The position numbers and the translations under genes are program-made. Positions 2,146 to 26,693 of a stretch of DNA of 64,000 nucleotides are shown here, piece after piece. The DNA comes from an uncultured Pseudomonadales bacterium. GTDB taxonomy: Bacteria; Patescibacteriota; Microgenomatia; UBA1400; MFAQ01. Under the pieces are notes generated by a model. That model saw only the letters and a program-made list of their open reading frames with translations. It searched no databases and was not told the DNA's origin. The DNA is taken from contig CAYTOI010000001.1 in the NCBI GenBank assembly GCA_964439805.1, positions 67,573-131,572 on the forward strand, given 5' to 3'. Position 1 is the first letter of the stretch; each line of letters starts with the position of its first letter.

Positions 2146-2763
2146 ATGACAGAAAAACTAAAGGGTATTTCAGGTTCCATGTTTGCCGGAAAAACCGAAG
2201 AACTAATTAGTGAAATAAACAGAGCTGAAATAGCCAAAAAAAATTGTCTAGTTTTTAAACCAAAACTAGATGACAGATGGGGAAAGGTAGATAAAATTTG
2301 TTCCCATTCAGGGGCTGAGCATGAAGCCTACCCTGTAAGTATTCCAGAAGAAATTCTTCAAATCGTCTATCAGTTTTTGGAAACCAATGACAAACTAGAC
2401 CTCGTTGCTATTGATGAAGTTCAGTTTATGGACGAGTCCATCGTAGAAGTAATAATTTTTTTACTAGAACAGGACATCAAAGTAATCTTTGCAGGTTTAG
2501 CCACCGACTTCCGAGGTGAACCCTTCGGTCAAATGCCCACTCTCCTTGCACTCGCAGATGAAATAGACAAACCAACAGCTATCTGCACGTATGAAGAAAA
2601 TGGAAAATGCTGTGGAGACGACGCCACCAAAACCCAAAGACTAATAAATGGAAAACCAGCTAACTACAACGACCCAATTGTTTTAATTGGAGCAGAACAA
2701 CAATACCAAGCCCGCTGCCCCAACCACCACCAAGTCCCAGGCAAACCAAAAATAAAAATTTAA
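2146..2763 (+). CDS. tdk: Thymidine kinase
   Basis: P-loop GSMFAGKTEEL, AIDEVQF Walker-B region and a C-terminal Cys cluster (CTYEENGKCCGDDA) for the zinc ribbon. Confidence 0.85.
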   Translation: MTEKLKGISGSMFAGKTEELISEINRAEIAKKNCLVFKPKLDDRWGKVDKICSHSGAEHEAYPVSIPEEILQIVYQFLETNDKLDLVAIDEVQFMDESIVEVIIFLLEQDIKVIFAGLATDFRGEPFGQMPTLLALADEIDKPTAICTYEENGKCCGDDATKTQRLINGKPANYNDPIVLIGAEQQYQARCPNHHQVPGKPKIKI

Positions 2764-3566
2764 GCCTTTTTACTCTTACTTTTGATAAAACCAATAGGGT
2801 CCTTCTTGGCTTCATCGATTTGAGAAAAATATTCTATACTGACTAGTTTTTCACCAAGCACCGATCTAATATGTGAATCCATATGTTCCAAATACTGTAC
2901 GAGTCTCTCATTTAAACCAACAGGTATATTATCTCCAGAATTAATTAAAAAGCATAGTTGAGCCATTGGACCTGCGTCAAAAAATTGCAAACTATTCTTA
3001 TTCTCTGTTTGATCCACAATAATATTAGAATCGCTCACATCCGCCAATATTCCAGTTTCCATAAAAAAAGCAATTGAAGCATTCATTATGTCTACTCTTT
3101 GCTCATTAATAGATTTAAAGTTGTTATTAACAAGTTCCAATGACCCCTGCAATTGATGTTCTTTACCTAATTTTTCCAAAGTTTTACCATCAATATATTT
3201 CTGAAAACGAACGTTCTTTCCACCTTTTTCATCTTCAACCCTTCGAACCTCCTCCCTCAAATAATAATCGCCAAAAATTCTAGAATATGTTTCATCTGCC
3301 AGTTTTGACCAATTGTAAAAATTTTCACTATCCAAAAAAGTCTTTGCTTCTAAATCGACTGGATGTTCTATATTGTTTTCCCAATTTGTTTCTTTATACA
3401 CAAACCTCTCATTTTCCTCACCAAAAGGACCATAGACAATATTTTCATAACCATCTTTACTCAACACACAATTTTTATAGTCTGCCGGAAGCTCCATGTT
3501 TTCAAAACTCATTTCTTTTTTTATATTAACTTCACCATTGTCTAATTCACCTTTATCTTCTCCCAT
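2760..3566 (-). CDS. Hypothetical acidic protein
   Basis: 268 aa Glu/Asp/Asn-rich ORF with no TM and no recognisable motif. Convergent with tdk, with a 4-nt overlap. Confidence 0.5.
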   Translation of the reverse strand: MGEDKGELDNGEVNIKKEMSFENMELPADYKNCVLSKDGYENIVYGPFGEENERFVYKETNWENNIEHPVDLEAKTFLDSENFYNWSKLADETYSRIFGDYYLREEVRRVEDEKGGKNVRFQKYIDGKTLEKLGKEHQLQGSLELVNNNFKSINEQRVDIMNASIAFFMETGILADVSDSNIIVDQTENKNSLQFFDAGPMAQLCFLINSGDNIPVGLNERLVQYLEHMDSHIRSVLGEKLVSIEYFSQIDEAKKDPIGFIKSKSKKA

Positions 3567-3717
3567 TCCACAATTCTACATTACAAACAAAATAAAAAAA
3601 TTATTAGCGGAGAGAGTGTCCTTTGTGGCGATATTTTGCAAGGTGCGCGTAGAGCATGATCTCCTGTACTCAGTACACATAAACACAACATCTTGAGTTC
3701 TTGATTCCTTGAGTTCT

Positions 3718-4821
3718 TCACTCAAGATAATCTTGCAACTTTCTTCTTCTAGAAGGATGTCTCAATTTACGTAGAGCCTTACTCTCTATCTGTCTTATAC
3801 GCTCTCTGGTGACACCAAATACTCTTCCAACCTCTTCCAAGGTCAAAGGTTTACTTCCGTCCAAACCAAATCTCATTCTAAGAACTTTACTCTCTCTTTC
3901 AGTAAGAGAAGTAAGCGCATCTTCCAAATTCTCATGCATTAATTGACGAGATGTTGACTCGTAAGGAGTAGCTTGTCTTTCGTCAGGAATAAAGTCTCCA
4001 AGCATAGAATCTTCATCATCTCCAATTGGGGTTTCAAGAGATGTAGTTTTCTGGGCAATTTTGAGAATTTCTCTGACTTTCTCTGGAGTGGTTTCCAACT
4101 CTGCTGCCACTTCGTCATCTGTCGGTTCTCTACCAAGGTCCTGCATCAACTTTCGCTGAGTTCTAATAAGTTTGTTTATTGTCTCCACCATGTGAACCGG
4201 AATACGAATAGTTCTGGCTTGATCAGCAATTGCACGAGTTATAGCTTGGCGAATCCACCATGTAGCATAAGTAGAAAATTTAAATCCTTTAGTCCAATCA
4301 TATTTCTCAACCGCACGAATCAAACCCTTGTTACCTTCTTGAATCAAGTCCAAAAAGCTCATTCCTCTGCCCATGTATTTCTTTGCAATCGAAACCACCA
4401 AACGAAGGTTCGACTTGGTAAGCATGTCTTTGGCGTGAACATTTCCTCTTTCTACCTTCTGAGCCAAAGCAATCTCTTCATCTCGTTTAAGAAGTGGAAT
4501 GCGTCCAATTTCCTTAAGATACATTCTCACTGGGTCGTTTACCTCAGTGTCCTCCATCTTGGAAAGAGACTCTAGTTCTTTTTCTAGCTCACTTGTAGCT
4601 TCCAATATTTCGGCGTCCTGACCTGCCAAAACACTCTCAAAAACGTCAACGTCTGACTTAAAAAGCACTTCATAAAGAAAATCCAAATCATTTATTTCTT
4701 TCTCTGGATTGGGAAATTGCTCCAAAATATCATCCTGGGTCACAAAACCCTGCTCCTTACCCTGTTCTAGGATTAGATTAATTTTCTGTTGGTTGGAAAG
4801 ATTCGCTTTTTTATCAGCCAT
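3718..4821 (-). CDS. rpoD: RNA polymerase sigma-70 factor RpoD
   Basis: Region 2 ([30 protein letters not shown]), region 3 and region 4 (LTEREARVLRLRFGL-like: [15 protein letters not shown]) are present. Sits directly downstream of dnaG. Confidence 0.95.
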
Positions 4822-4848: not shown

Positions 4849-6615
4849 TTAAGCGAAATCAAGGGAAAAAAGCTTGTTTTCCCTGGTATCCAAATCCCTT
4901 AGCTTCAACAAAATCTCCTTTTCCTTCTCTTCTTCTCCGTTTTTCTCCGCCAGCTCCCTATCTTTGGCCAAATCTGTCCTTCTCTCTCTAATCATTTCTC
5001 TAGCAATCTTTACGGTAAGATCCAAGACGTTAGACTCGTTAGTTTCTGCCTCTTCTGAGCTCATGTAGATGTCTTTGCAGACCTCTTGCATCTCTGTGGG
5101 CATAGTTAAGAGAAAATCTTTAATTTCCACCCCAGACTCAAGATTATCAAAAACAAAAACCAATAACTTCCACAATCCTCCCGACCCTTCAATGTCTCTT
5201 AGAACTTTTTTTGTCTTTCTTATTAAATCTTGGTTAGCCAGCAAACTTCCAATTAAATTTTTCAAAAGCTTATCAATTCGTGATTCACTTACCGTCTTTT
5301 CCTCTTTCTTAGCAATCACTCCGACCGATCTCCCTGACCGACTTTTGTCAATTTCTGCCAAAACACTATTAAGACTTACCCCAATTTTCTCCGCGAGTCT
5401 TTTGGACCAAACCTCTCGAATGACAACATTTTCAATTTTTGAAAGAAAAGGAATAACTTCCACCAAAACCTTACTTATTCCTTCTGGAGTTCCATCATTG
5501 TTTTTCTTTATCGCTTTTTCCATCACAAACTCATAAACATCAACTGCAGACTCTACCATTTTCTTCCAAAGACCCGCCGAGTTTCGGGCAATTTCATCCG
5601 GATCTTTGCCTCCATCTATCTGTACAACTTTAATATTCAAACCTCTTTTTTCTGCAAGCTCCACCGATCTTTTTATCGCCGCATAACCCGCGTCATCTGC
5701 ATCAAGTGAAACATATATTTTGTTTGCAAGCCGAGCCATCAACTCCATCTGGTCTTCTGTAATCCCTGTTCCTCCAACGGCTACTGTTTCTGTAATGCCA
5801 CTAGCAAAAGAACTGATCTGATCCATCTGACCTTCTACCAAAACCACTCTTTTATTTTCTCTTATTGCTTTTTTTGCTTGGTAAAATCCATAGAGCATTT
5901 TTCCTTTATGATAAATTTCTGTTTCTGGAGAATTTAGATATTTCGGTTCTCCTTCTTTGGCAAGTTCTGGCAACACTCTCCCAGTAAAACCCACCACTCT
6001 ACCTGCCGAATCCTGCAAAGGAAACATCAGCCTTCCTCTAAATTTGTCATAGTACCCTCCTCCAGCTTTCTTAACCACAAGCCCTACTTTCTCCAATAGT
6101 TCCAAGGAATAGTTTTTCTTCTTAGTAAGGTAATTTATCAACGAATCCCAACTACTTAAAGAAAAACCCAAATTATATGTCTCAATTATTTTGCTCGATA
6201 TTTTTCTTCCCTCCAAGTATTTTCTAGCTACTTCCCCTGATTTTCCTGACACCAAAATCCAGTTGTAATATCTAGATGTAAGTTCCATAACTTCCAACAT
6301 CTCATTTTTTATCTCACTATTATTCCCGGATCTTTTCTCTAGCTTTATCCCCACTCTATCTGCCAGTCTCTCCAAAGCATCCAAAAAACTAATTCCTTCA
6401 ACCTCCATTAAAAATTTAATTGAGTCACCTCCTGCACCACATCCAAAACACTTATAAAGATTTAACTCTTCGTTAACCAGAAAACTTGGAGTTTTTTCGG
6501 AGTGAAACGGACACAGCCCCTTCTGATGTCTTCCCATTTTCTTTAAAGCCACATATTGACCTACTACATCCGCAATATTATTTTTGCTCTTTATTTCCTC
6601 AACTTGATCATTCAT
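4849..6615 (-). CDS. dnaG: DNA primase DnaG
   Basis: CHC2 zinc finger (CPFHSEKTPSF...CFGCGAGG) and Toprim region (VVLVEGQMD...DAD). Classic dnaG-rpoD operon order. Confidence 0.95.
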   Translation of the reverse strand: MNDQVEEIKSKNNIADVVGQYVALKKMGRHQKGLCPFHSEKTPSFLVNEELNLYKCFGCGAGGDSIKFLMEVEGISFLDALERLADRVGIKLEKRSGNNSEIKNEMLEVMELTSRYYNWILVSGKSGEVARKYLEGRKISSKIIETYNLGFSLSSWDSLINYLTKKKNYSLELLEKVGLVVKKAGGGYYDKFRGRLMFPLQDSAGRVVGFTGRVLPELAKEGEPKYLNSPETEIYHKGKMLYGFYQAKKAIRENKRVVLVEGQMDQISSFASGITETVAVGGTGITEDQMELMARLANKIYVSLDADDAGYAAIKRSVELAEKRGLNIKVVQIDGGKDPDEIARNSAGLWKKMVESAVDVYEFVMEKAIKKNNDGTPEGISKVLVEVIPFLSKIENVVIREVWSKRLAEKIGVSLNSVLAEIDKSRSGRSVGVIAKKEEKTVSESRIDKLLKNLIGSLLANQDLIRKTKKVLRDIEGSGGLWKLLVFVFDNLESGVEIKDFLLTMPTEMQEVCKDIYMSSEEAETNESNVLDLTVKIAREMIRERRTDLAKDRELAEKNGEEEKEKEILLKLRDLDTRENKLFSLDFA

Positions 6616-6633
6616 CTACCTGATTATAACAAG

Positions 6634-6736
6634 CTCATAATGACTTCAGTGATTATGAGCGCAGTTATAAGAGGAAGCGCAGGATGATAGTTCAATAATT
6701 ATTTATTATTGAACAGAAGACGAGCAAGCTCTTATA
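6634..6736. repeat. ~100-nt structured dispersed repeat, copy 1 (second copy at 12045-12146)
   Basis: About 92% identical to 12045-12146. Contains two perfect hairpins (gctcataat..attatgagc, and gttcaataat-tattt-attattgaac) nested in an outer stem ataagag/ctcttat. Confidence 0.7.
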
Positions 6737-6746
6737 TAAACAGTCG

Positions 6747-7571
6747 GTGAATTCGACTTCAGTGATTTATATTCTTCCCCATTTGAAATATACTCAAACC
6801 ATGCAAATTTCAGAAAAAAGTATCGGTTTGGTTTTGGGTGGTGGCGGAGCTAGAGGCTTTTTCCATATCGGTGTCCTCAAAGCCATTCAAGAACTCAACA
6901 TAAAGATAGACAAGATCTCGGGTACATCCGTAGGTGCTGTTGTTGGTGCCATATACGCCGCCAACCCTCAAACGGATTTTGACAAACTAACTTCAGAAAT
7001 TGATTTTTTAAAAATAACCAAAGCAATGGCTCTCGGCAGAAAATCCGGCACCACTTCTGGTATTGAAACATTTATTAAAAACCACTTATCAGCCAACGAC
7101 TTCTCAGATCTAAAAATTCCCCTTTCTTTTAATGCCACAGACATCAACAACAAAGAAGAGGTGGTTTTTGACAAAGGACCCCTTTTCCCGGCCCTAATTT
7201 CTTCCATCTCTATTCCAGGGGTATTTCCACCAATAAAGATTGGGGGTCGTTTTCTAGTTGACGGAGGTGTAGCCAACAATGTTCCAGCTTCACTGATTAC
7301 CGACACTACCAACCTCATAATCTCCGACATTACCGGACCTGTGAGAAAAATTGAAAGTGACACTTCCCCCCTTAAGGTTCTCTATAGCTCCATAACTTTT
7401 ATGCAGTACCGAATCAAACAGGAAGAGCTAAACAAAATTAAAAATCAAAAAGTTACTCACCTAAAACTTTTAGAAAACAACATTTTCCTCTTGGACTTCC
7501 GAAAGAAAAATTTCAAAAAACTCATTAACCTCGGCTACAAAGCCATGATGGATAGTGACTTTGCAAAATAA
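6747..7571 (+). CDS. Patatin-like phospholipase
   Basis: GGGxRG oxyanion motif (GGGARGFFHIGV), GxSxG nucleophile (GTSVGA) and DGG catalytic Asp motif (DGGVANNVP). Confidence 0.85.
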   Translation: MNSTSVIYILPHLKYTQTMQISEKSIGLVLGGGGARGFFHIGVLKAIQELNIKIDKISGTSVGAVVGAIYAANPQTDFDKLTSEIDFLKITKAMALGRKSGTTSGIETFIKNHLSANDFSDLKIPLSFNATDINNKEEVVFDKGPLFPALISSISIPGVFPPIKIGGRFLVDGGVANNVPASLITDTTNLIISDITGPVRKIESDTSPLKVLYSSITFMQYRIKQEELNKIKNQKVTHLKLLENNIFLLDFRKKNFKKLINLGYKAMMDSDFAK

Positions 7572-7573
7572 CT

Positions 7574-7715
7574 GGCGGAGGAGGTGGGATTCGCCTTCGG
7601 TCACTTTCAGTGCCTCAGGACCTGTCTCAGCAGGTTTGTTACAAAACTGCTTCCGACTGTCCGAATTCCATATAGCAATAAAAAAATTCTCACATAAAGC
7701 GAGAATTTTTAATTG
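7574..7715 (-). mobile_element. tRNA-Ser(GGA)-associated ~120-nt element ending in a 19-nt copy of the tRNA 3' end
   Basis: gcggaggaggtgggattcg at 7575-7593 repeats the tRNA 3' end at 7716-7734. The intervening sequence contains a terminator hairpin (attctc..gagaat plus T-run) and a ~80-nt segment homologous to 9893-9962 and 11886-11968. Confidence 0.5.
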
Positions 7716-7800
7716 CGGAGGAGGTGGGATTCGGACCCACGAGTGCCGGAGCACACTCGCTTTCCAAGCGAGCGGAATAGACCACTATCCGACTCCTCCG
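7716..7800 (-). tRNA. tRNA-Ser (anticodon GGA)
   Basis: Class II tRNA: acceptor GGAGGAG/CUCCUCC, anticodon stem CUCGC/GCGAG with loop UUGGAAA, long variable arm GUGCUCCGGCAC, T arm GUGGG-UCCGAAU-CCCAC, discriminator G. Confidence 0.85.
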
Positions 7801-7929
7801 AGTGAGCAAGTTTGTAAATTTACTAATTTACAAGTTTGTGAAGCGAGGAGGAGAGGATATCGTAGATATCCGTACTCCTACACAATTCTCTACTCGATTC
7901 TCAAGTTTTAAAACTCAAGCTTCTATATT

Positions 7930-8757
7930 TTACCTCAACCTCCCCAAAGCTGATAGAAGCTCATTTACGTTGTCCAGGTGAACTGTCCCCTCCGGAACCT
8001 TTCCTGCCTTATAAACAGACCAACTTGAGCCGTTGTGTAACCACATTGTTTTTGCTCCAATTTCTGCTGCTGGGATAATATCTCCCGGAAGACTGTCACC
8101 TACCACCAAACACTCCTCTGGTAACACTTCCAAACCAACCATACACTTTACCCAATCAGCTGCACTCTTGTGCTTGTTTTCGTCAGCCACATAAATTAAA
8201 TCAAAATACTCACTCATCCCCGTAGAATTTAATTTCATATTTGTCCAATCCTCGTTAGCATGAGTTACCAACCCTATCTTAATTCCACATCTTTTTACTA
8301 TTTCCAAAACAGCTTCTGCACCCGGCCTAATCCTGGGCTCTTCTGAATATATCTTCATTAATATATCCAAGTTCTCTAGTACAGTCTGTTCATTACCCTC
8401 AAATTCCAAAGCCATTTTCTTTAACACTGCTTCCCATCGTGCCGGATTAACCCCCATTCTCTTGTATTCTTCATCATTAAGTCTCCTCAAACTCTCAATT
8501 ACCAAACCCTCCTCCACTCCCATTTCCTCGGCTACCTTACTAGCATACGCTTCCATGTATTTTGCAAACTTTTCTGTAGTAAAAATCAAAGTATCATCAA
8601 AATCAAACAAGACAGCTTTAATTCCCAATCTATTAAACTTTTCTTTTACTTCTTCTAAAAATCTGTCCTGAAATTTCTCCATTGTGGACAATATATCACA
8701 ATCAAAACTCTCTGCGGAGGGTACAGGAGTCTTGAGGTAATCCGAAATCCCGAGCAT
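7930..8757 (-). CDS. HAD-superfamily hydrolase
   Basis: Motif I FDFDDTL, motif III-IV GDSLPGDI. 275 aa. Confidence 0.8.
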   Translation of the reverse strand: MLGISDYLKTPVPSAESFDCDILSTMEKFQDRFLEEVKEKFNRLGIKAVLFDFDDTLIFTTEKFAKYMEAYASKVAEEMGVEEGLVIESLRRLNDEEYKRMGVNPARWEAVLKKMALEFEGNEQTVLENLDILMKIYSEEPRIRPGAEAVLEIVKRCGIKIGLVTHANEDWTNMKLNSTGMSEYFDLIYVADENKHKSAADWVKCMVGLEVLPEECLVVGDSLPGDIIPAAEIGAKTMWLHNGSSWSVYKAGKVPEGTVHLDNVNELLSALGRLR

Positions 8758-8780
8758 GTCTCGCGGGAGAACCTGTATCC

Positions 8781-8866
8781 TGGCGGTGGGGACAGGACTC
8801 GAACCTGCATGCCCTTGCGAGCGCCAATTTTCGAAATTGGTTCCTTACCATTCGGAGCACCCCACC
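8781..8866 (-). tRNA. tRNA-Ser (anticodon CGA)
   Basis: Class II tRNA with encoded CCA: acceptor GGUGGGG/CCCCACC, anticodon stem CCAAU/AUUGG with loop UUCGAAA, long variable arm, T arm GCAGG-UUCGAGU-CCUGU, discriminator G. Confidence 0.8.
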
Positions 8867-8875
8867 AAATATATG

Positions 8876-8950
8876 TGAGACCGGTGCGATTCGAACGCAC
8901 GACCTCCTCCTTCGCAGGGAGGCGCTCTAATCCAACTGAGCTACGGCCTC
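8876..8950 (-). tRNA. tRNA-Arg (anticodon GCG)
   Basis: Acceptor GAGGCCG/CGGUCUC, D arm GCUC..GAGC, anticodon stem CCUCC/GGAGG with loop CUGCGAA, T arm GUGCG-UUCGAAU-CGCAC, discriminator A. Confidence 0.8.
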
Positions 8951-8996
8951 ATATTAAAACTAAAAGTCTCAACAGCTATATTTTACCTTAACAGCG

Positions 8997-9506
8997 TTAC
9001 TCTAAGGGAAGTTTCTCCGAAAGCCACTTGACTAACCTGTCCATACCCGTGACCTCAGGCTCAACAAAGGGTACAAACTTAGACATCTCTTCTTTTATCT
9101 TTGCCTCGTTACTCTCGCTAATAACCACAACCACATGCCAAGGAGAGTCAACCAGATTTATTCTCAACAACCTCGTTCCCCACTTTGTTTCTATCCAAAA
9201 ATTAGTCATTCTTTGAAAATCATAAAGTCTCCCAACAGAACGAATTCCCCAAGAGGTTAACGTGTTTTTTGTAATCATCGGTTCTGTTCTACTCATGGCC
9301 CACATCATAAATACCAATGCCCAAACCACAAAAACCGGCATTACCCCTTCTATGAAAAACAAAATAACACTAACCAAAAAAGCTATAACGATAACTGAGC
9401 TGTAAAACTCCTTTGTCCACACTTTGTGTGGCCTCTCATAAGACTCCCATTCAAATATGTTTTTTTCCGTTAAGTCGTTAGTTTCAGGCACATTTAATCT
9501 TAGCAT
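8997..9506 (-). CDS. Membrane protein, hypothetical
   Basis: 169 aa with two adjacent TM helices near the middle. Embedded between tRNA genes on the same strand. Confidence 0.5.
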   Translation of the reverse strand: MLRLNVPETNDLTEKNIFEWESYERPHKVWTKEFYSSVIVIAFLVSVILFFIEGVMPVFVVWALVFMMWAMSRTEPMITKNTLTSWGIRSVGRLYDFQRMTNFWIETKWGTRLLRINLVDSPWHVVVVISESNEAKIKEEMSKFVPFVEPEVTGMDRLVKWLSEKLPLE

Positions 9507-9523
9507 ATCAACCTCAAAAACCT

Positions 9524-9613
9524 TGGCGGAGGGGCAGGGATTCGAACCCTGGGTGAGTATTACCTCACGGAGGTTTAGTAAACCTCTGCACTAGACCACT
9601 ATGCGACCCCTCC
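9524..9613 (-). tRNA. Class II (Ser-type, G73) tRNA with atypical anticodon loop UUACUAA (apparent anticodon ACU)
   Basis: Encoded CCA; acceptor GGAGGGG/CCCCUCC; D stem GCA/UGC; anticodon stem GAGGU/ACCUC; long variable arm GUGAG-GUAAUA-CUCAC; T arm CAGGG-UUCGAAU-CCCUG. A34 is unusual. Confidence 0.6.
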
Positions 9614-9614
9614 T

Positions 9615-9699
9615 TGGCGGAGAGTACAGGGGTCGAACCTGTTAGGGCTTACGCCCATTAGTTTTCAAGACTAACGCATTACCGTCCTGCCCACTCTCC
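9615..9699 (-). tRNA. tRNA-Ser (anticodon UGA)
   Basis: Class II tRNA with encoded CCA: acceptor GGAGAGU/ACUCUCC, anticodon stem UUAGU/ACUAA with loop CUUGAAA, long variable arm GGGCGUAAGCCC, T arm ACAGG-UUCGACC-CCUGU. Lies 1 nt from the neighbouring tRNA. Confidence 0.8.
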
Positions 9700-9763
9700 G
9701 TGCATTGTATTTTATCATTTTAAACTTAATTTTGTGCTTGAACCTGTTAAAATAATTAAGATT

Positions 9764-9846
9764 GGAGGCGTCCGATAGTGGTTATTCGAGCGGATTGCTA
9801 ATCCGCGGCCCAAAAGGCCCCGTGGGTTCGAATCCCACCGCCTCCG
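9764..9846 (+). tRNA. tRNA-Ser (anticodon GCU)
   Basis: Acceptor GGAGGCG/CGCCUCC, anticodon stem GCGGA/UCCGC with loop UUGCUAA, long variable arm GGCCCAAAAGGCCC, T arm GUGGG-UUCGAAU-CCCAC, discriminator G. Confidence 0.85.
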
Positions 9847-9982
9847 CAATAAAATCTGTCCGCCTTGTGTGGGCAGATTTTTATTGCCAAAGTGGGAATC
9901 GAACATGCCGGAACCAGTTTCGTAACGAACCTGGTGAGGCCGGTCCTGAACAAAAGTGAGGGCGAATCCCACCGCCTCCGCA
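9847..9982 (+). mobile_element. tRNA-Ser(GCU)-associated ~120-nt element ending in a 20-nt copy of the tRNA 3' end
   Basis: Terminator hairpin at 9851-9885 (aaaatctg..gcc/ggc..cagatttt plus T-run). A ~75-nt segment follows that is homologous to the 7595-7676 segment (ggaatcgaaca..cggaacc..agtttcgtaacgaacctg..tgag..ggtcctga..aaagtga). cgaatcccaccgcctccgca at 9963-9982 repeats 9827-9846. Confidence 0.5.
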
Positions 9983-10030
9983 AATTACGATATACTTTCC
10001 CCAAAGATCTTTACAAAAAAGGAGAAACTC

Positions 10031-10633
10031 ATGACTGATTGTGTATTCTGTGACTTTTCAAAAATAAAAGAGAGAACTATTGCCACCATTGAGGGATTTA
10101 ATATTGTTGCCACTTTTGGCCAAATCACCAACGGTGGATACTTACTCTTAATCCCCTCAAGACACATCCCCTGCCTCGGTGATCTTAAGGCTGAAGAAAT
10201 TACAATATTTGAAAACATATTAAGTCAAACAATAGTCTTTTTGGAAGAAGAGTATCAAAACGGTGTTACCTTATTCGAACACGGCATCGTAGGCCAGACC
10301 GTCAAACATGCCCATCTTCATCTAATACCTTCCAAAATAAAATTCCACAAAAATATTGTTTCTGATTTCCCCCACTCAGAAATGCAGTCAATCAGCAGCT
10401 TCACTCAACTTTCAAGTCTATTTAAAAAACGACAAGAACCCTATCTCCTCTGGTCAACCTCAAACAATTACTACCAAATTTGCTGGAACCCTCCAGCCGT
10501 CCCAGAATACCTTCGCACTCTTTCAGCTCAAACTCTTGGAGTTCCAGAACGAGGCAGTTGGCGAAACATGGATCCAAAACTAGACAAAGAGCTGATTGAC
10601 CAAACAATGACAAGAATGTTTCCTTTTTTTTAA
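10031..10633 (+). CDS. HIT-family (histidine triad) hydrolase
   Basis: HAHLHLIP histidine-triad motif. ATG at 10031 is preceded by AAAGGAG; the longer ORF-track start at 9956 would overlap the tRNA-derived repeat. Confidence 0.8.
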   Translation: MTDCVFCDFSKIKERTIATIEGFNIVATFGQITNGGYLLLIPSRHIPCLGDLKAEEITIFENILSQTIVFLEEEYQNGVTLFEHGIVGQTVKHAHLHLIPSKIKFHKNIVSDFPHSEMQSISSFTQLSSLFKKRQEPYLLWSTSNNYYQICWNPPAVPEYLRTLSAQTLGVPERGSWRNMDPKLDKELIDQTMTRMFPFF

Positions 10634-10645
10634 TTCCTAACCTTC

Positions 10646-10671
10646 AGACCTGAGCAATCAGGTCTTTTTTT
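10646..10671 (+). terminator. Rho-independent terminator after the HIT gene
   Basis: agacctga-gcaa-tcaggtct hairpin followed by TTTTTTT. Confidence 0.6.
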
Positions 10672-11368
10672 AATGCCCCAAGGCAAAACCCCAAACCACT
10701 GCCACTCCAGCTTGTTTTAAAACCTTACAGCACTCTTTCATGTTCGACCCAGTTGTAAAAACATCATCTACAAGCAACACCTTCTTTCCACTCAAACTTT
10801 TATTTTCTCTATCTTGAGTTCTTGATTCCTTGGGTTCTTGAGTTCTAATTGAAAAAGCATCCCTAATATTTTCAACTCTTTCCTCCCTGCTCTTCATCAA
10901 AGCTTGCTGCTTGGTATTTTTGATCCTTTTTAAAACATTTACACAAGGTACCCCAACCTTCTCACCCAGCACTCTCCCAATTTCCTCAGCCTGATTAAAA
11001 CCTCTCCAATTTTGACGATAAAAATGCAAAGGAACAGGGACTAAACAATCAAAATTAACACCGGTCTCAATGCTCATATTCTCAAAAAGCCTAGCCACTA
11101 AATCCTTATTAAAATCATATTTGATTGTATCTACAACCGACCTCACACTAGGATCTCCATACTCAAAAAGCACTATCAACCCGTCCATACCTAAGTCCCT
11201 CTTGCACTTCTCATGAGTCCAGCCCATTATTGATTCCTGCTCACACATGGGGCATATCTGGGCTGATATACCCAACTCTTTCTCACAACCCACACACAAG
11301 TCTTCTTCCAGCTTGCCACAAACAGCACATGTCTTGGGGAAGAAAAAGTCCTTCAAAACACTCAACAT
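10670..11368 (-). CDS. ComF-family phosphoribosyltransferase-domain protein
   Basis: N-terminal double Cys-x2-Cys zinc finger (CAVCGK..CVGCEK..CPMCEQ) and C-terminal PRTase motif VLLVDDVFTTGSN. Carries an in-frame octamer-repeat insertion at 10812-10846 (RTQEPKESRTQDRENKS). Confidence 0.8.
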   Translation of the reverse strand: MLSVLKDFFFPKTCAVCGKLEEDLCVGCEKELGISAQICPMCEQESIMGWTHEKCKRDLGMDGLIVLFEYGDPSVRSVVDTIKYDFNKDLVARLFENMSIETGVNFDCLVPVPLHFYRQNWRGFNQAEEIGRVLGEKVGVPCVNVLKRIKNTKQQALMKSREERVENIRDAFSIRTQEPKESRTQDRENKSLSGKKVLLVDDVFTTGSNMKECCKVLKQAGVAVVWGFALGH

Positions 11369-11445
11369 ATCTCATTTTACTTGATTTTTGAGCTCAAATG
11401 TGTTAATATTATAGGTAGTAATATATGCAGTATATTGCAGGTATT

Positions 11446-11842
11446 GGGGACGACAGGAATCGATGGGTAAGTTCATTTACAAGATGCAAGCCTCCTTTGG
11501 TAAAAGGAGTAAAAAAGACCAAAAAACAACTGTCAACAAAGAAGACAAGTTACTTGGATCCATCGATTTCGGTGGTTTCAATTCTTCCGCTCGTGCTTTC
11601 GCTTTTGCCTAAGCATAGCTTGAAGACGTCTTAGAGAATATCGGATCCCGGGGTACCTTTAAGGCGATAAAAAACCGGATTGAATGTTTTGAGTTTGATT
11701 AAGGCTCAAAAACTAACTTTTTCTTAATCGACCACACAGTGTTCTTGTTTGCCTGAAGCTTTGTGGAAAATCGGCAATCTAAGCTTGTAGTATCTTTAAA
11801 TCAATTTATTCAGACGAGAGTTCAATTCTCTCCGTCTCCACA
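11446..11842 (+). ncRNA. ssrA: tmRNA (ssrA)
   Basis: 5' GGGGACGACAGGAAUCGAUGGG resembles the E. coli 5' end. 3' GAGAG-UUCAAUU-CUCUC T arm plus CGUCUCC-A acceptor pair with the 5' end, including the G3-U70 Ala identity pair. Internal tag frame ...GGFNSSARAFAFA ends at TAA 11610-11612. smpB is adjacent. Confidence 0.8.
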
Positions 11843-12040
11843 CATAAAAGAGTCTCCCTTGCGGAGATTTTTTTATGTGTCAAGAAAAGAGATTTGAACT
11901 AAACGGAGCCAAACCTGTAACAGTTTTGGCGAGTTGGGGTCGACGAATTTGCGAAGCAAATATCGGTGACTTCAATTCTCTCCGTCTCCACACATAAAAG
12001 AGTCTCCCTTGTGGAGGCCTTTTTGTTTAAAAATTATATC
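11843..12040 (+). mobile_element. tmRNA-associated element ending in a ~50-nt copy of the tmRNA 3' end and terminator
   Basis: Terminator at 11846-11878. A ~90-nt segment then shares the ..gaac..cggagcca..aacctg-taac-agtttt..ggcgag..gggtc.. motifs with the two tRNA-Ser-associated elements. ttcaattctctccgtctccacacataaaagagtctcccttgtggag at 11971-12020 copies 11821-11870. Confidence 0.5.
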
Positions 12041-12044
12041 AAGA

Positions 12045-12146
12045 CCATAATGACTTCTGTAATTATGGGCGTAGACATAAGAGGAAGCACAGGATGATAG
12101 TTCAATAATTATTTATTATTGAACAGAAGACGAGCAAGCTCTTATT
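12045..12146. repeat. ~100-nt structured dispersed repeat, copy 2
   Basis: Near-identical to 6634-6736 and retains the same nested hairpins. Confidence 0.7.
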
Positions 12147-12401
12147 TTCTAAGAGATCTAAAAAATGCAATTTTTTCTGTAAGCAAAAGTCCCATCATTT
12201 GGTCTTTACTAGACTGCATAACAACAGCGGCCAAAAACAGGTCAAACTCATCTTCGTTCATTTTGGCAACTTTGACAGCAATATTCTCTTCCCATTTTTT
12301 AACACTCATTTTCGCGTTAAATTCATTTCCCCAAGGAAATTGCATTACGCAAGTTGGCATAATTTTTGTCCAAAAAACATCCATATTTTTTGCCTTTCAG
12401 G

Positions 12402-17353: not shown

Positions 17354-17426
17354 CTAGTTTATATTATTTCTGATATCTGACATCTGAGATCTGACATCTA
17401 TATATCAATCCCATGCTAAAATTACA

Positions 17427-19167: not shown

Positions 19168-19218
19168 TCCAGAAGATATTCAACATCTTGAGATCTTGAG
19201 TTCTTGATTTCTTGAGTT

Positions 19219-20328
19219 TTACATCTCCCTCTCAACCATGTATCTCGCTATCCCCTCCAAGTAATCTATCGCCTCACTATTCAATTTTAACTTTCTGAGT
19301 TTCTGGATTGTTTCTATAGATTTTTCATTTAAATCTCTTGCCACTTTTACAGAATAATCATACGAACCACTTTCCTTAATTGCTTTCTTTGCCAAATCAA
19401 CATCTTTTTCATTAGCTGCTTTTTTACCCCAAACTTTCATAACAGATTCCTTCTGCTCTTCCGTCCCCAATTCCAACACTTTTACAATCAGCAGTGTCAC
19501 TTTGCCTTGCAACAAATCCGAATTTGCTGATTTTCCTGTTTTTTCTTCATCACCAAACAATCCCAAGATGTCATCTTGGAGTTGAAAAGCTACTCCACCA
19601 AACTCAGAATATTCTCTCAAAACATCTTTTACCTCTTCCGACAAGTCGGCAAGTATTGCTCCAATAATTAGAGGGTTTTCGTAAGTATAAATTCCCGTTT
19701 TTGCTCTATGCAAACTCATTACTTTTTCTTCTGTCATTTCTCCTAAGTTTGGCAAACTCACATCATAAGCCTGGCCAAAAGCAGTGTTCGCTATTCCTCG
19801 GAGCATCTGTTTCATGGCTGCTATTAAGTTCTTTTCCTCAAATCCAGAGTCCAAAATTCTCTCGTATCCCAAACACAAAACCGAGTCTCCAATATTTACC
19901 GCCATCGACTCCCCAAAGTGTTTATCTTCTTTTCCAAAAAATACTTGTGTTGTCGGCTCTCCTCTTCTGACAAGATCTTCGTCCATAAAATCATCATGCA
20001 TAAGCAAAGCCGTATGAACCAATTCAACTCCTTCCGCCACCTTCCATATATCCCCACCTTTTGTCTTAAGTTCTTGATTCCTTGAGTTTTCGAGTTCTTG
20101 TAGTTTGTATCCCCAAACCACAAACCCTGCTCTCGCCCTCTTTGCCGATCTCAAATTGTGCTCCTTGGCGTGCAAAAGCATCTCTCTAACCATTTTTTTC
20201 TGAGTCTCGTTGTAACCAAAATTTTTACCCAACTCAATATCCCAATACTTTTCCAGCCTCAAATCCATATCCTTAGCCAAAGCAACTAATTTTGTTTTGG
20301 CAGATAATCCTAGTTCATTTTTTACCAT
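19219..20328 (-). CDS. Polyprenyl diphosphate synthase (IspA/IspB family)
   Basis: First Asp-rich motif LLMHDDFMDED and second motif FQLQDDILG. Carries an in-frame octamer-repeat insertion at 20066-20102 (ELENSRNQELKTK). Confidence 0.85.
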   Translation of the reverse strand: MVKNELGLSAKTKLVALAKDMDLRLEKYWDIELGKNFGYNETQKKMVREMLLHAKEHNLRSAKRARAGFVVWGYKLQELENSRNQELKTKGGDIWKVAEGVELVHTALLMHDDFMDEDLVRRGEPTTQVFFGKEDKHFGESMAVNIGDSVLCLGYERILDSGFEEKNLIAAMKQMLRGIANTAFGQAYDVSLPNLGEMTEEKVMSLHRAKTGIYTYENPLIIGAILADLSEEVKDVLREYSEFGGVAFQLQDDILGLFGDEEKTGKSANSDLLQGKVTLLIVKVLELGTEEQKESVMKVWGKKAANEKDVDLAKKAIKESGSYDYSVKVARDLNEKSIETIQKLRKLKLNSEAIDYLEGIARYMVEREM

Positions 20329-22557: not shown

Positions 22558-22629
22558 ACAAACAAACTCACCATCTTGAGTTTTTGAGTTCTTGAGTTTT
22601 TGAGTTCTATATTATTGTAAAATAAAACC

Positions 22630-22986
22630 ATGTCTTTCAATTTTATTCCTCAAGCACACGCAGCCGGTTTTACAGCAGGTGATCAATGGCAAGGTGCCGG
22701 ATGTGCTCAAGATGGAGTCGCCACCATAGGCGGAATTCAGTGTCTAATTGGTAATGTTTTAGTTATCATTCCTTCAATGTTAGTATTGGCCGCTGTGGGA
22801 ATGATTATCTTTGCTGGTATAAAAATAATTAATGCTGGGGCAGACACAAAAGCTTACGCAGCAGGCTGGAATACTTTTTACTACGCCGCCATCGGTTTGG
22901 TACTTCTTTCTGTCGTTTGGTTTGTAATAGTCTTAATCCAAAACTACACCGGAACAAACATTACCGAATTTGGAATTCCAAATTAA
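22630..22986 (+). CDS. TrbC/VirB2-like T4SS pilin family protein (array member 7, divergent)
   Basis: Two TM helices with NAGADTKAYAAGWNTFYYAAIGL, a degenerate form of the motif. Confidence 0.55.
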   Translation: MSFNFIPQAHAAGFTAGDQWQGAGCAQDGVATIGGIQCLIGNVLVIIPSMLVLAAVGMIIFAGIKIINAGADTKAYAAGWNTFYYAAIGLVLLSVVWFVIVLIQNYTGTNITEFGIPN

Positions 22987-22988
22987 CC

Positions 22989-25900
22989 GTGAAAAAGTCA
23001 CTAATAATTTTCTTCTTAATTATTTTTGATTGCCTAATAATCTTTCAGCACAACAAGCTCGTCTTCGCCGCTCAAGAAGTTACAAATCCAAACCCAACCC
23101 CAACATCTTCCACGTATCAACCAACTTCAATCAATGCCCCCCAAAACCCCGCTCCACCACTAATAGGTAATACTCCATGTGGCAACACTGTGTGTCTAGA
23201 AAATGAGGTTTGTGTTATGTACCCTGCAGACAAAGACGAACACTGTGTTCCTGTAGATATTGACCCTTCCGCAATTAGCGCTGATCCAATAAAAAACAAA
23301 CTTGAGGACTGTAATAAATTAATTGGCAACAATCAGTCAGTATTTCCTCCAAACTCAAAATGTTGGAATAATACCGTCATGGTTCAAAGCGACCTTAGTA
23401 AGTTTGACAAAACCTGCATCTACCAACCAGTAATTAAATATACAGACACAAGATACTTAAAAACAAAGGGAAGTGTTCCTGGCTTTGAAGAATGTGGAAA
23501 TGGCAACAACCCTTTTGGAGGTAGCCCTCCAGGCGACAGCAAACAAGACAAGTGTTATGTGGGAGTACTTGTCTACACTGATGTTAGAGATGCCACTCTC
23601 GGAAGCTACGGACCAGATGAAAAAACCATTCAAGAAAATTCAGGAGATTATTTAGCACAAAATTATTTATACAACTCACTTTTTGGACGTCCCAACACTA
23701 CAGTTGGAGCAAATAAGGAATCATATCGCACATATTGGCGCCTTATTCCTGCAGAAAATCAAGCCAATCTTCGTTCATTTACTCTAAATATGAGCAAGCA
23801 GGGATTGATGGAAAATACCAATTTTGAGTTTGATGGCAAATCAGAAAAAACAGATTTAGTAGATCTATATGACCAATTAAGCAAACAAATTACTGTTTTT
23901 TTACACCCTCCTTTTATTAGAATTGGTTGCTTAACAGATTATCCAGTATGTCCAGAATTTGCCAAGGCTATATCTGACTTTAACACCCCAGTTTCTGACA
24001 CAATTGCTTTTGTTAACAATTTCCCCTTTCCCATTGTCCTAGAGGAAGTATTAAATTATTTTGGTTCCATTACAGATGACACAAATCAAAAACTGGCTAC
24101 AAAATACTCCTCTTTCGTTCCATTGGATTTTAGTAGCGTTAGAAGTTATATTTTTCGCAAACCAACCGAAGAAACCGAGTCAAAAATCTACAACGGCGAA
24201 CTCGATGGGCTTTCTTCCTTTAATGGCAAACTTGTAGACGGTCTTAACCAGCCCAGGTATGGAACAAACAAACCTTTGTTAAACAGTATAACTTCAGAGT
24301 CAACTCCTTACGTAGGAGCCATTTATCAAGGACTTATGTCTCCAAAATTTGGACTAATCAACTCTCTTCACCCTCAATGGCTGATAGAAACATATACAAA
24401 CCCAGAAGAAAGTGTTTTGTACGATTACAGTGCAGGCAACACACCGTCCGATTATCCAGAAGTAAAAATTGCCAAAAAAAATCTTATAGAAAGAGCAATT
24501 AGTGAAGCTAAATTGTTACTAAAAAACCCTCTCAGCTGGGCTGCAGATATTTTGTTGGGTAACAAAAATTTTAACGAATTCAATGACACTGCTTTATTAC
24601 CAAAAGGATACAACGAACCTAGAGTTGAGAATAAAAAAACTGATGTAAAAAACTATTACCAAAATATGCTAGATTGCCCCCTTCCTGTTAGTTATCATAT
24701 ATCCGCTCCATTTACCGCAAACTTAAGCAAGGATCCTTTGAAAAGTGTTTCCAAAGACGATCATCATCAGGTTATATATATTAGGGGAAACAACGTAAAG
24801 TGGGATTTTGATCCAGAAAAATGGGAAATTGTGGAGGATAAAGTAGATCCAAAAACAGGTATTACCTATCAAGTAGTCAATCGATGTCCCAAAAACGATG
24901 AACATTTTCAAAAAGATGGAGAACCAAACACCTGTTATAAAAGAAGGTGGCAATTAACAGCCATAGAAAAAGGGAACGCCTTAACCGTTTTAAACAATCC
25001 AAAACAATCTGACATCAAAAAATCAGTTGTTTCTGAGGCCAAATTTTCTTTATACAATACACTTCTCCCTTCAACCCTATCTGTAAAAAAAATCACAGAG
25101 GCAAATATTGACGCTCCAATAGCCAGAAATTTTGTATCTCAAAATGGAGGTGGAGACGCAGTAGGACCAGCCGGTGAAGCTGAGATGCTAAATCCCGCTG
25201 AACCAATAAACAGAGTTAATAATTTTGCTCAAGATTCTGTTCACCTCCTCCAAAACTGTTGGTCTGTTCCAGATAATCTCCAAAATTCACCACGCTGCAA
25301 AATTGCCCTTACAGACGCTTCAGCCAGTGCTTGTACAGGTGAAAAATTCAAAGAATTAATTGGAGACAATAATTTAAATATTAGTGAAAAAGGAAAACAA
25401 CTCTATTCTCTAGTTGAGTCAAAACTAACAGACGATCTTATCACTGCCTATGCTGAAGCCGAAAAACAAACAGGTGTACCCTGTGAAGTTCTCGCTGGTA
25501 TTCACTACCGAGAGGCTGATAACAGCCCCACTCAAGACCTGCAAAGCGGTGCTCCTCTAGGAGGAAGATCACTCACGGAATCTGCCATACAAGCTGCCAA
25601 TGAACTTTTAGGTAAAGCTGGTGGAAAAATTGGTGATATAGATACTCTCATAAAAGCTTTATCTTGGTATAACGGTGGTGGAAACGCCAACTGTCAACCC
25701 ACAACTAGTTGCTCTGCTATCAAAAACAATCGATGTGGAAGCAAGGTTGCTTGCGACAATCTCCCTTCAACAGCTACTAGCGCAGAAGTAAAATCTGCTT
25801 GTAGTTGTGGTGTAGAAGCCGGATCTTGCCGAAGTCAATGCAATTCAGGCTACCCATTCCTAATCCCCACTTCACCAGGGCTTTGTCCTCCCCCTTCAAT

Positions 25901-26102: not shown

Positions 26103-26668
26103 AAAAATACTACAAAATAATTATTTCAATATTTTTTGTATTTATTATTATCTTTATGACTTTTTGGTTAACAAAACCAAAAGACTCAAAAAACTTTTTT
26201 ATAAACTCGGTTCCTTTTTTAAGCAATGACAGCAACAAACTCCCTACTCCTACCCCCACAGAATCATTTAATGGTAGTGGAATACCAGCTCAAACAAACT
26301 ACAAAAAAGTAGCTGACCAAATAACTAGTGAAGTTTCATCAATTGAAAAAGAAAAAATAATTGATATCCTCCCAGTCAGAATTAACAATTTCGATTCTGG
26401 AACACAAATAAAAACAACCATCAATGTTTTTACCTTAGCGTCAGACCCTCCCCAATCAGTTAGAATAGAAATTTACGGACCAAACTTCAACAACTCTAGC
26501 TTGACCAGTCAAGACGCCTTTGCCTTCAAAAATTCTTTCAATGAAATTAAAAAGGTGTTTGCAAAAAACAATGTAAATCTTAATAATCTTCAAATTATCT
26601 ACGGCAATCGCCAATATATCCAAGATACGGCCACTTTCTGGGTAAAAGAATTCAAACTTCTAGACTAA
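26099..26668 (+). CDS. Membrane-anchored hypothetical protein
   Basis: 189 aa with an N-terminal TM. 4-nt overlap with the upstream gene. Confidence 0.5.
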   Translation: MKKYYKIIISIFFVFIIIFMTFWLTKPKDSKNFFINSVPFLSNDSNKLPTPTPTESFNGSGIPAQTNYKKVADQITSEVSSIEKEKIIDILPVRINNFDSGTQIKTTINVFTLASDPPQSVRIEIYGPNFNNSSLTSQDAFAFKNSFNEIKKVFAKNNVNLNNLQIIYGNRQYIQDTATFWVKEFKLLD

Positions 26669-26693
26669 AATCTAGTATAATTTTCTCTAGTAT

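Follow-up and report, generated by a model that had tools for sequence, protein, structure and literature searches.

A low-copy palindromic repeat at variable insertion sites in Candidatus Collierbacteria, probably a nonautonomous mobile element

REP sequences occur hundreds of times per genome and have a conserved palindrome sequence and a 5′ GTAG, and elements of the Correia and ERIC types are bordered by long terminal inverted repeats, accompanied in Correia by a TA duplication. The genomes of the CPR/Patescibacteria are small. Enterobacterial RU elements are small mobile sequences (PMC2759123), and a resemblance of REPs to the subterminal hairpins of IS200/IS605 has been noted (PMC3333891). 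Elements of the IS200/IS605 family insert on the 3′ side of a set tetra- or pentanucleotide without duplicating it and have a defined tetranucleotide at which the right end is cleaved; in IS608, 19 and 10 nt separate the tetranucleotides from the hairpin feet, and guide sequences pair with the cleavage sites (PMC3201880). The preferred substrate of the family is the lagging-strand template (PMC5027513).

The element described here is ∼108 nt long, is bounded on either side by TTAT, and has no coding capacity. It is present in two copies in the window, i.e., the whole 64-kb stretch of DNA that was analyzed. We consider it probable (probability of roughly 0.6) that it is a low-copy, nonautonomous mobile DNA element in an uncultivated Candidatus Collierbacteria (CPR/Microgenomates) population, moved in trans, possibly as single-stranded DNA. 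As bacterial “junk” repeats go, it is of an ordinary (MITE/REP-like) kind but had not been described in this lineage, and a full-text literature search found no described repeat of such a kind in CPR/Patescibacteria genomes.

With the Correia/NEMIS elements of Neisseria, ERIC, RUP, BOX, and the enterobacterial RU-1/2/3 MITEs, the element shares a size in the range of ∼100 to 150 nt, an intergenic location, strong folding, variability among strains, and the capacity to act as a source of promoters, terminators, or stop codons. However, unlike the Correia and ERIC types, it has no terminal inverted repeats, and its flanks are TTAT. Like the REP/BIME sequences mobilized by RAYTs (REP-associated tyrosine transposases), it is located at gene ends and is assembled from short palindromic modules that are flanked by short conserved motifs; modules occur singly (contig L098) or combined, and extra palindromes are inserted between them (contig L090). 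Nevertheless, with two copies in 64 kb and one solo module in ∼260 kb (few per 100 kb), a palindrome that varies in one module (module A), TTATAWCAAG as the conserved motif, and no RAYT gene seen among the window open reading frames (ORFs) or in related gene tables, membership in REP/BIME was rejected.

Composite structure of the element

The two copies align without gaps and differ by 10 substitutions (102 of 112 positions identical), in agreement with the sequence-only reading, which had reported two ∼92% identical copies; repeat detection in the window returned the pair as 113 nt at 91% identity. A 43-nt core pattern with ≤3 mismatches had two matches in the 64 kb, copies 1 and 2 (expected number, 0), and a covariance model run across the window with filters off gave no copy beyond these two. 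The leading 43 nt, around hairpin 1, account for nine of the 10 differences, and the remaining 69 nt contain a single difference (6679 G/12089 A). The element is a composite of two palindromic modules, A (variable) and B (invariant), the coordinates of which are given in Table 1.

Table 1. Positions in the window of the element, its modules and helices, and associated features
Feature	Positions	Strand	Description
Copy 1	6624..6735	+	Includes TTAT at each end (6624-6627, 6732-6735); between dnaG and patatin starts
Module A, copy 1	6624..6670	+	Left motif TTATAACAAG (conserved), hairpin 1, CGCAG linker, enclosing 7-bp helix
Hairpin 1, copy 1	6633-6660		9 bp; arms 6633-6641/6652-6660, loop 6642-6651
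Helix enclosing hairpin 1, copy 1	6624-6630 with 6664-6670		7 bp; TTATAAC with GTTATAA
Module B, copy 1	6667..6735	+	ATAAGAG, purine-rich linker, hairpin 2, second linker, CTCTTAT
Hairpin 2, copy 1	6690-6714		Perfect 10 bp; arms 6690-6699/6705-6714, loop TATTT
Outer stem, copy 1	6667-6673 with 6729-6735		ATAAGAG complementary to CTCTTAT
Copy 2	12034..12145	+	Includes TTAT at each end (last, 12142-12145)
Module A, copy 2	12034..12080	+	Hairpin 1 at 12043-12070, loop variant GACTTCTGTA
Module B, copy 2	12077..12145	+	Hairpin 2 at 12100-12124
Empty allele of third insertion site	3692..3721	+	rpoD stop TGA (3718-3720, − strand) and CTTGAGTT 8-mer array
Hypervariable right flank of copy 1	6736..6774	+	13-nt direct repeat of hairpin 1 loop region (6754-6766 = 6643-6655)
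Duplicated tmRNA 3′ end	11968..12024	+	With terminator; beside copy 2

Both copies fold far better than shuffled sequences, as the earlier description of an unusually structured sequence had implied; RNA-fold z-scores were −5.7 and −3.7 on the + strand and −5.5 and −4.4 on the − strand, and 0 shuffles were as good. The perfect 10-bp hairpin that had been described (hairpin 2) was found as such. The 9-bp hairpin ascribed to both copies is present in copy 1, but in copy 2 it is reduced to 7 bp plus one mismatch. The complementarity behind the proposed 7-bp outer stem exists, but this stem competes with the 7-bp helix enclosing hairpin 1, and when copies 1 and 3 (the third copy is described below) are folded as DNA, the minimum-energy structure contains the latter.

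Three sequence variants of module A were found among the copies, with three compensatory pairs in hairpin 1 and the enclosing helix; the sequence of hairpin 1 varies while its pairing is kept, and the end motif TTATAWCAAG is conserved. One pair is G·T on the − strand and A·C on the + strand. In module B, the three aligned copies differ only at position 6679 (G/A). Covariation thus supports only part of the fold: hairpin 2 and the outer stem have no such support, because neither varies among the aligned copies.

Presence and absence among related strains

The comparison set consisted of related contigs (L numbers, Logan contigs among them), covering ∼260 kb of related loci, and among strains of the same Candidatus Collierbacteria species cluster the presence of the element varies from site to site. 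A third copy lies directly after the rpoD stop in L007 and L008, contigs that are ∼91% identical to the window. There the element's TTAT supplies the rpoD TAA stop, and the window has the 8-mer array only; the gain is compact (∼108 nt), with conserved sequence on either side. Copy 2 is missing in L002, L003, L004, L006, and L089, which carry a terminator and a membrane-protein gene at that place instead. Compared with L089 and L004, a stretch of ∼590 nt is also deleted at site 2, so the insertion there is not clean. The element is lacking at site 1 in L092, L093, and L094, and L089, L090, and L091 have orthologues there that match copy 1 exactly. The third insertion site and the empty alleles rule out a recent segmental duplication that left only two copies, the scenario that the sequence-only reading had set against its own proposal.

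Identity between the window and L089 is 100% over 6596-6735, compared with 72 to 92% in the flanking genes, and it falls from 100% precisely at 6735/6736, directly after CTCTTAT. L090 and L091 have 3 mismatches in 2757 nt (99.9% identical), and an additional 52-nt palindromic insert within the element separates L090 from L091. The ∼260 kb of related loci contained nothing new beyond one solo module A (L098, 17907-17953). The three composite copies have one common orientation; orientation is not uniform overall, because the L098 solo module and the L090 insert read on the opposite strand. These comparisons show that the element occupies different sites in strains that are closely related and that it is far more conserved than its surroundings. 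It has probably moved around the genome recently, as an element that is currently or was recently active in the Collierbacteria population.

Conservation and folding of this kind might also be expected of a structured small RNA gene or a cis-acting RNA module (stabilizer, processing site, or protein-binding RNA) that is under purifying selection and was spread by duplication. The z-scores on both strands (−3.7 to −5.7), the compensatory changes in module A, and the near constancy of module B are consistent with such an RNA; the 100% identity of the site 1 copy to that of L089, amid neighbors at 72 to 92%, could likewise come from purifying selection; and on the − strand the element occupies a 3′ untranslated region position at rpoD (L007) and the 80-aa ORF beside copy 2 and a leader/promoter position at dnaG. 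However, Rfam 15 gave nothing at the gathering thresholds (best subthreshold scores, 11 to 17 bits versus thresholds of 36 to 86) and only noise even at E ≤ 10, no promoter-like or terminator-like signal common to copies 1 and 2 was found, position relative to + strand genes is inconsistent, and the invariance of hairpin 2 and the outer stem provides no covariation evidence there. Furthermore, the module A paralogues differ at 9 of the first 43 nt and the window and L089 orthologues are identical, which argues for recent origin rather than constraint, and presence or absence between near-identical strains requires mobility anyway. It seems unlikely that the element is an RNA module.

Insertion borders

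TTAT is present on both sides of all three insertions (ATAA on the − strand), which is compatible with a target plus the element's own end and equally with a 4-bp duplication. Two of the insertion sites are located exactly at TAA stop codons; removal of the element and one TTAT restores GAA-TAA for rpoD in L007 and AAA-TAA for the 80-aa ORF, as in L089. Inspection by eye of the three aligned copies revealed no conserved terminal inverted repeats. The ends are not mutually inverted (left, TTATAWCAAG; right, as reverse complement, ATAAGAGCTTGC), and the best inverted-end candidate, a gapped 8/10 match, occurs in copy 1 only and is not kept in copies 2 and 3.

Of the three options raised earlier (small RNA, protein-binding site, and MITE-like element), the last agrees best with the data, as far as a small noncoding sequence with site-by-site presence and absence is concerned, with TTAT on both sides and filled and empty alleles at three sites, but a classical (DDE) MITE was rejected for lack of terminal inverted repeats. 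A DDE-transposase MITE with TTAT as a 4-bp target-site duplication, or a mini-element of a tyrosine or serine recombinase with TTAT as the crossover core, would account for the identical TTAT in 3/3 insertions, the size of ∼110 nt, and the intergenic location, and recombinase scars are plentiful in the region, where the 3′ ends of both tmRNA and tRNA-Ser are duplicated. However, in addition to the ends, the same “duplication” at each site would imply a strict target specificity that is unusual for DDE MITEs, the window has no detected transposase or integrase, and the tmRNA 3′-end duplicate is older than the element, because L089 carries the duplicate without the element. Such an origin is improbable. 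That the copies never moved and are leftovers of homologous recombination or segmental duplication between promoter- or terminator-like AT-rich palindromes, with strain differences representing deletions, would fit the ∼590-nt deletion at site 2, native sequence loosely like the element's left motif beside sites 1 and 2, and the low copy number, but is distinctly unlikely in view of the compact gain with a restorable stop at site 3, three sites with no common flanking homology beyond TTAT, a nested insertion that distinguishes 99.9% identical strains, and an identity tract that stops exactly at the element border.

Possible single-strand mechanism and effects on neighboring genes

The preferred reading, a nonautonomous element moved in trans, draws on likenesses to palindrome-associated transposable elements (PATEs) and other nonautonomous IS200/IS605 derivatives, which are also small and noncoding, lack terminal inverted repeats, and have a subterminal hairpin with related arms near each end, here GYTCA(A)TAAT in hairpins 1 and 2. 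Apparent insertion beside a fixed tetranucleotide is a further likeness, and so is the presence within the element of a complement to the cleavage-site tetranucleotide. Read on the − strand, 17 nt separate the left flanking ATAA from the foot of hairpin 2, and on the right 9 nt lie between the foot of hairpin 1 and the end of the terminal ATAA; these asymmetric distances are close to those of IS608 (PMC3201880).

There are also differences. The candidate guide is one central 10-nt segment for both ends, whereas IS608 has 4 nt 5′ of each hairpin foot, and the two ends of the element carry one and the same tetranucleotide, in contrast to the TTAC and TCAA of IS608. The exact IS608 guide rule does not apply, because the tetranucleotides directly 5′ of the hairpin feet, TTCT (3/4) and CTGC/CTAC (≤2/4), are not clean complements of ATAA. 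Unlike in PATE/IS200/IS605 elements, the module A hairpin varies freely between copies, and searches of the window and the related contigs revealed neither TnpA nor TnpB. No Y1/HUH transposase, RAYT, TnpB, or other transposase was detected among the 56 window ORFs or in the gene tables of related contigs, no integrase was found in the window, and scans of the collection for the element's ends were negative.

The enzyme that moves the element would be an HUH/Y1 protein, of either the IS200/IS605-TnpA or the RAYT type, whose gene lies elsewhere in the genome, and the moving form would most likely be folded single-stranded DNA. Insertion may occur 3′ of ATAA in the G-rich − strand reading. The central segment CTCTTATRWC (− strand) can pair with both termini (7 bp each, with one compensatory change) and might thereby present the cleavage sites. 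Because the GC skew of the + strand is negative over the whole window, the − strand would be the lagging-strand template, the substrate that IS200/IS605 elements prefer (PMC5027513). In an IS608-like reading, this G-rich strand is the active one, and the L098 solo module and the L090 insert are opposite to it. If a single-strand HUH-type mechanism operates, an unrecognized transposase should exist in these genomes, and the element would be a convenient strain-tracking marker; otherwise, it is an ordinary small repeat.

Over 10 nt, the central segment could pair with the ends as they would be joined, and over 7 nt with each integrated border. It is conceivable, but very unlikely, that the element is a self-contained mobile unit guided by nucleic acid, in which this invariant segment is the internal guide that presents ATAA target and cleavage sites to a putative CPR enzyme and the module A hairpin is a swappable recognition cassette; if so, it would represent a new single-strand transposition architecture or a new RNA/DNA-guided recombination system in reduced CPR genomes.

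Any effects of the element on neighboring genes would be incidental. Copy 1 starts 8 nt upstream of the dnaG ATG (6613-6615, − strand) and abuts a −10-like TATAAT box, 7 nt upstream of dnaG, in front of the dnaG-rpoD operon. It had been placed 10 nt before the patatin ATG, but the patatin protein on record (256 aa) starts at ATG 6801 (+ strand), 65 nt past the copy; an in-frame GTG is located at 6747, 11 nt beyond it. Copy 2 adjoins the duplicated tmRNA 3′ end, as had been described, but starts 9 nt later rather than immediately. Its last TTAT contains the TAA stop (− strand) of the 80-aa ORF (12142-12384), and with rpoD this is the second gene end remodeled through a stop codon. In L089, the right flank of the copy 1 site has a 20-nt repeat from a different part of hairpin 1 than the 13-nt repeat in the window, and this flank (6736-6774) probably derives from an older copy that has decayed. 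Metagenome assemblies break at copies of the element, as in the Logan contigs L001, L005, and L091, which end within the repeat.

The repeat, its fold and its modules

The sequence-only reading had described a repeat that is real and non-random, and this was borne out. Copies 1 and 2 aligned without gaps (113 nt at 91% in the repeat search), with 10 substitutions over 112 nt when counted on the alignment of the copies, and both folded far better than shuffled controls on either strand, with z scores of -3.7 to -5.7 for RNA folding and -3.9 to -5.9 for DNA folding. Nine of the differences lie within the first 43 nt, and the remaining 69 nt hold a single one (G at 6679, A at 12089). A pattern for the 43-nt core with up to 3 mismatches had two matches in the window, copies 1 and 2, compared to an expectation of 0, and a scan of the 64 kb with a covariance model built on the element, with filters off, detected no copy beyond these two.

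Both hairpins are located where that reading had placed them (hairpin 1, 6633-6660; hairpin 2, 6690-6714). However, the identical fold claimed for hairpin 1 in both copies applies to copy 1, whereas copy 2 has a mismatch in this hairpin. The outer stem proposed around hairpin 2 was also only partly sustained: ATAAGAG at 6667-6673 is complementary to CTCTTAT at 6729-6735, but a second 7-bp helix (6624-6630 with 6664-6670), which encloses hairpin 1, competes with it for the ATAA at 6667-6670, and the DNA minimum-energy folds of copy 1 and of copy 3, found in related contigs, contained the enclosing helix and not the outer stem.

Between the three copies, the hairpin of module A, the left part of the element, differs considerably in sequence. 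Compensatory pairs were counted in hairpin 1 (two) and in the enclosing helix (one); a pair in that helix reads G.T on the - strand and A.C on the + strand. The covariation score of the three sequences was reached by 17 of 500 shuffles and is suggestive only. Module B, the right part, gives no covariation test, because only one site varies among the three aligned copies. In the related contig L098, a solo type-A module is present between rpmH and dnaA on the opposite strand, in the order TTATATCAAGAC, 7-bp hairpin, GTATAGAT. Since this module can stand alone, the 113-nt repeat is evidently a composite of A and B, resembling BIMEs in their mosaic build.

An RNA function for the element, one of the earlier proposals, is still conceivable. 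Searches of Rfam at gathering thresholds and at E<=10 returned noise only and no family match, and simple promoter and terminator scans gave no promoter-like or terminator-like site common to the two copies.

Positions of the repeat copies, their modules and other features of the window
Feature	Position	Setting or remark
Copy 1	6624-6735	between the divergent dnaG-rpoD operon and the patatin gene
Copy 2	12034-12145	between the duplicated tmRNA 3' end and an 80-aa ORF, with smpB next after the ORF
Module A	6624-6670	conserved left motif, hairpin and G-Y-R-Y-AG linker
Module B	6667-6735	contains hairpin 2
tmRNA	11446-11843	
tmRNA 3' end and terminator	11818-11874	
Duplicate of tmRNA 3' end and terminator	11968-12024	150 nt downstream
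8-mer tandem arrays	3692-3715, 10813-10828, 19187-19218, 20065-20096, 22575-22606, 47307-47338, 47887-47926, 51929-51960, 52446-52461, 54709-54740	+ strand
7-mer tandem arrays CTGAGAT / CTGATAT	17367-17401, 44182-44216, 54356-54390	all + strand, three copies
dnaN	41293-42411	
dnaA	42738-44123	
rpmH	44216-44371	
rnpA	44373-44702	

Occupied and empty sites in related contigs

The names in the RpoD cluster assign the window to Candidatus Collierbacteria, a part of CPR/Microgenomates. For comparison, contigs with identical or near-identical encoded proteins were taken from other assemblies; an RpoD-based search of genome contigs for related loci was dominated by Firmicutes and yielded no close relative. 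L007 (ENA ERZ965348) and L008 (ERZ27258492), which are ~91% identical to the window, carry copy 3 directly after the rpoD stop codon (site 3), where a short CTTGAGTT array (3692-3721) is all that the window has, with the sequence on both sides conserved. Copy 2 is missing from site 2 in L002, L003, L004, L006 and L089; these five contigs have the 80-aa ORF, a canonical terminator, a gene for a membrane protein of 186-223 aa and then the tmRNA region. The location of copy 1 (site 1) is occupied in L089, L090 and L091 and empty in L092, L093 and L094, all of which are more distant. The third site and the empty alleles rule out a segmental duplication limited to two copies, an origin that the sequence-only reading had left open. 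Three short-read contigs (L001, L005 and L091) terminate inside the repeat, as expected of a multicopy sequence.

Because L089 has the duplicated tmRNA 3' end and not copy 2, the duplication came before the element and has nothing to do with it. The element was rejected on the same ground as a remnant of an island that had duplicated the tmRNA 3' end.

On the + strand, all three insertions have the form TTAT/AWCAAG ... GCAAGCTC TTAT/, with slashes at the borders. Removal of the element with one TTAT leaves a plausible ancestral sequence at sites 3 and 2: rpoD of L007 would end in CTT GAA TAA, compared to CTT GAG TGA in the window, and the 80-aa ORF in AGA AAA TAA, as actually found in L089. 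The terminal TTAT of the element thus supplies the stop codon of rpoD (in L007) and of the 80-aa ORF. Inspected by eye, the copies had no conserved terminal inverted repeat in common. TTATAWCAAG is missing from the empty allele of site 3 and has no other occurrence in the window, and it was therefore taken as a probable part of the element and not as native target; the alignment of site 1 showed no clear preference on this point. The patatin ATG, previously put 10 nt after copy 1, is further away, since the recorded protein starts at the ATG at 6801, 65 nt downstream.

Site 1 of the window and of L089 are 100% identical over 6596-6735, whereas in 50-nt bins of the flanking dnaG and patatin sequences the identity is 72-92%, with an abrupt fall exactly behind CTCTTAT at 6735. 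The paralogous copies 1 and 2 have 9 differences in module A. That this module tolerates change between paralogues yet is identical between orthologues argues for a recent common origin of the latter, by spread, re-insertion or conversion, and not for constraint alone. Copies 2 and 3 have in common the A at the position of 6679 and the variant GCGTAGA, which copy 1 lacks, and so would descend from other master copies that are not among the sequences here.

L090 and L091 match over 2757 nt apart from 3 mismatches, yet in L090 an additional insert of 52 nt (764-815), made of two small palindromes, sits exactly between modules A and B. It opens with ATATCAAGAC, a motif shared with module A, is missing from the otherwise 99.9% identical L091, and has no second copy in the fetched sequences.

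TATAAT boxes lie just 6 to 7 nt upstream of the ATG at dnaG (TATAAT CAGGTAG ATG, 6606-6623) and rpmH (TATAAT TACGCC ATG, 44240-44262), a spacing which suggests that the transcripts may be leaderless or nearly so. Element-free relatives have TAGAAT at the dnaG position. Adjoining site 3 is another strain-specific indel, an ORF of 268 aa without Pfam match (2760-3566, - strand) between rpoD and the thymidine kinase gene; in L007 and L092 it is absent and the thymidine kinase gene follows rpoD directly.

A candidate route of mobilisation

The presence or absence of the element site by site supports the mobile part of the MITE-like reading, but the element is not a classical MITE and appears closer to PATE or REP/BIME-like elements. 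On the - strand, it has the layout ATAA/GAG-N14-(hairpin 2)-N16-CTCTTATRWC-N3-(hairpin 1)-(C)TT-GWTATAA/. The left hairpin foot has the flanking ATAA 17 nt on its 5' side, and the terminal ATAA ends 9 nt 3' of the right one. The cleavage tetranucleotides of IS608, 19 nt 5' of one subterminal hairpin and 10 nt 3' of the other, are recognised by internal guide sequences that pair with them (PMC3201880). The central CTCTTATRWC has 7-bp complementarity to the left junction ATAA/GAG and also to the right terminus GWTATAA/, so that it would pair over 10 nt with the joined ends, ...CTTGWTATAA/GAGCTTGC... The two hairpins have related arms, GYTCA(A)TAAT. Because each of the sixteen 4-kb bins has a negative GC skew on the + strand (-0.07 to -0.39), whatever the gene orientation, we infer that the template of the lagging strand is the - strand; IS200/IS605 elements favour that template as substrate (PMC5027513).

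Given the IS608-like spacing, the complementarity to the termini, the related arms and the inferred lagging-strand template, single-strand mobilisation of the HUH/Y1 type would be the most economical model. It is unproven, because no HUH/Y1 enzyme is encoded in the window or any fetched contig, the IS608 guide rule is not followed in exact form, the L098 solo module and the L090 nested insert are oriented opposite to the composite copies, and TTAT on both sides would suit a recombinase core or a 4-bp duplication just as well. The 56 ORFs of the window gave no transposase or integrase domain.

Several other readings were rejected. A 13-nt match between the hairpin-1 loop and the downstream flank of copy 1 is real; however, a guide-like targeting code was rejected, because L089 and L090 show this flank to be a partial copy of hairpin 1, variable and decayed, the 8-nt match of copy 2 lies in coding sequence also present in element-free strains, and copy 3 has none. 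Integron attC, dif/Xer sites and IS110 bridge RNA were discarded because core motifs misfit and flanks past TTAT are unconserved between sites, and a DGR-type template/variable repeat because the substitutions are not adenine-specific.

Distribution and other features of the window

Sequence collections were scanned with exact patterns, the hairpin-2 core or the left linker, and phage and plasmid records by BLAST of the whole element. GTDB representative genomes and IMG/VR gave no real match, and phage and plasmid records no match. Two pattern scans of JGI metagenomes gave no real match either, a weak negative since one of them left unreported the exact match to its own pattern in the JGI contig L089; the only two hits, L095 and L096, were rejected as chance matches in coding sequence for ...ELARLL.... 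Among the fetched sequences, the element occurs in a single Collierbacteria species cluster, with samples that include a wastewater metagenome (record name of ERZ965348). The element belongs to a known kind of small bacterial repeat, and its modest interest lies mainly in the CPR genome and in the signs of very recent activity.

Eleven tandem arrays of an 8-mer (CTTGAGTT / CTTGATTC) are on the + strand and no real one on the - strand, an extreme bias that agrees with the uniform GC skew. Several are directly 5' of a start codon when read on the - strand (...AACTCAAG ATG), and others are within long ORFs (LeuRS, TsaD, ComF-like, polyprenyl synthetase). One of the 7-mer arrays is in the dnaA-rpmH intergenic region, where L098 has its solo hairpin module instead. 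The sign of the GC skew does not change at the dnaA/rpmH locus. The replication origin of this genome apparently lies away from dnaA.

Two duplicates of the tRNA-Ser(GCT) 3' end, one direct and one inverted, are present (9822-9849, 9956-9983 and 7569-7598); these and the tmRNA 3' duplicate resemble scars left by integrase-mediated insertion. Relative to L089, the region of the tRNA cluster at 7.6-10 kb is rearranged. The cluster comprises five tRNA-Ser genes and one tRNA-Arg gene, and ARAGORN called one tRNA-Ser (9524-9613) with the unusual anticodon ACT. Five large ORFs without Pfam match (189-1061 aa; 22917-33921) adjoin genes for PrgI-like, VirB4/TraG-like ATPase and M23 peptidase proteins and several small T4SS-pilin-like genes, and the neighbourhood of the VirB4-like gene is conserved in related Collierbacteria contigs.
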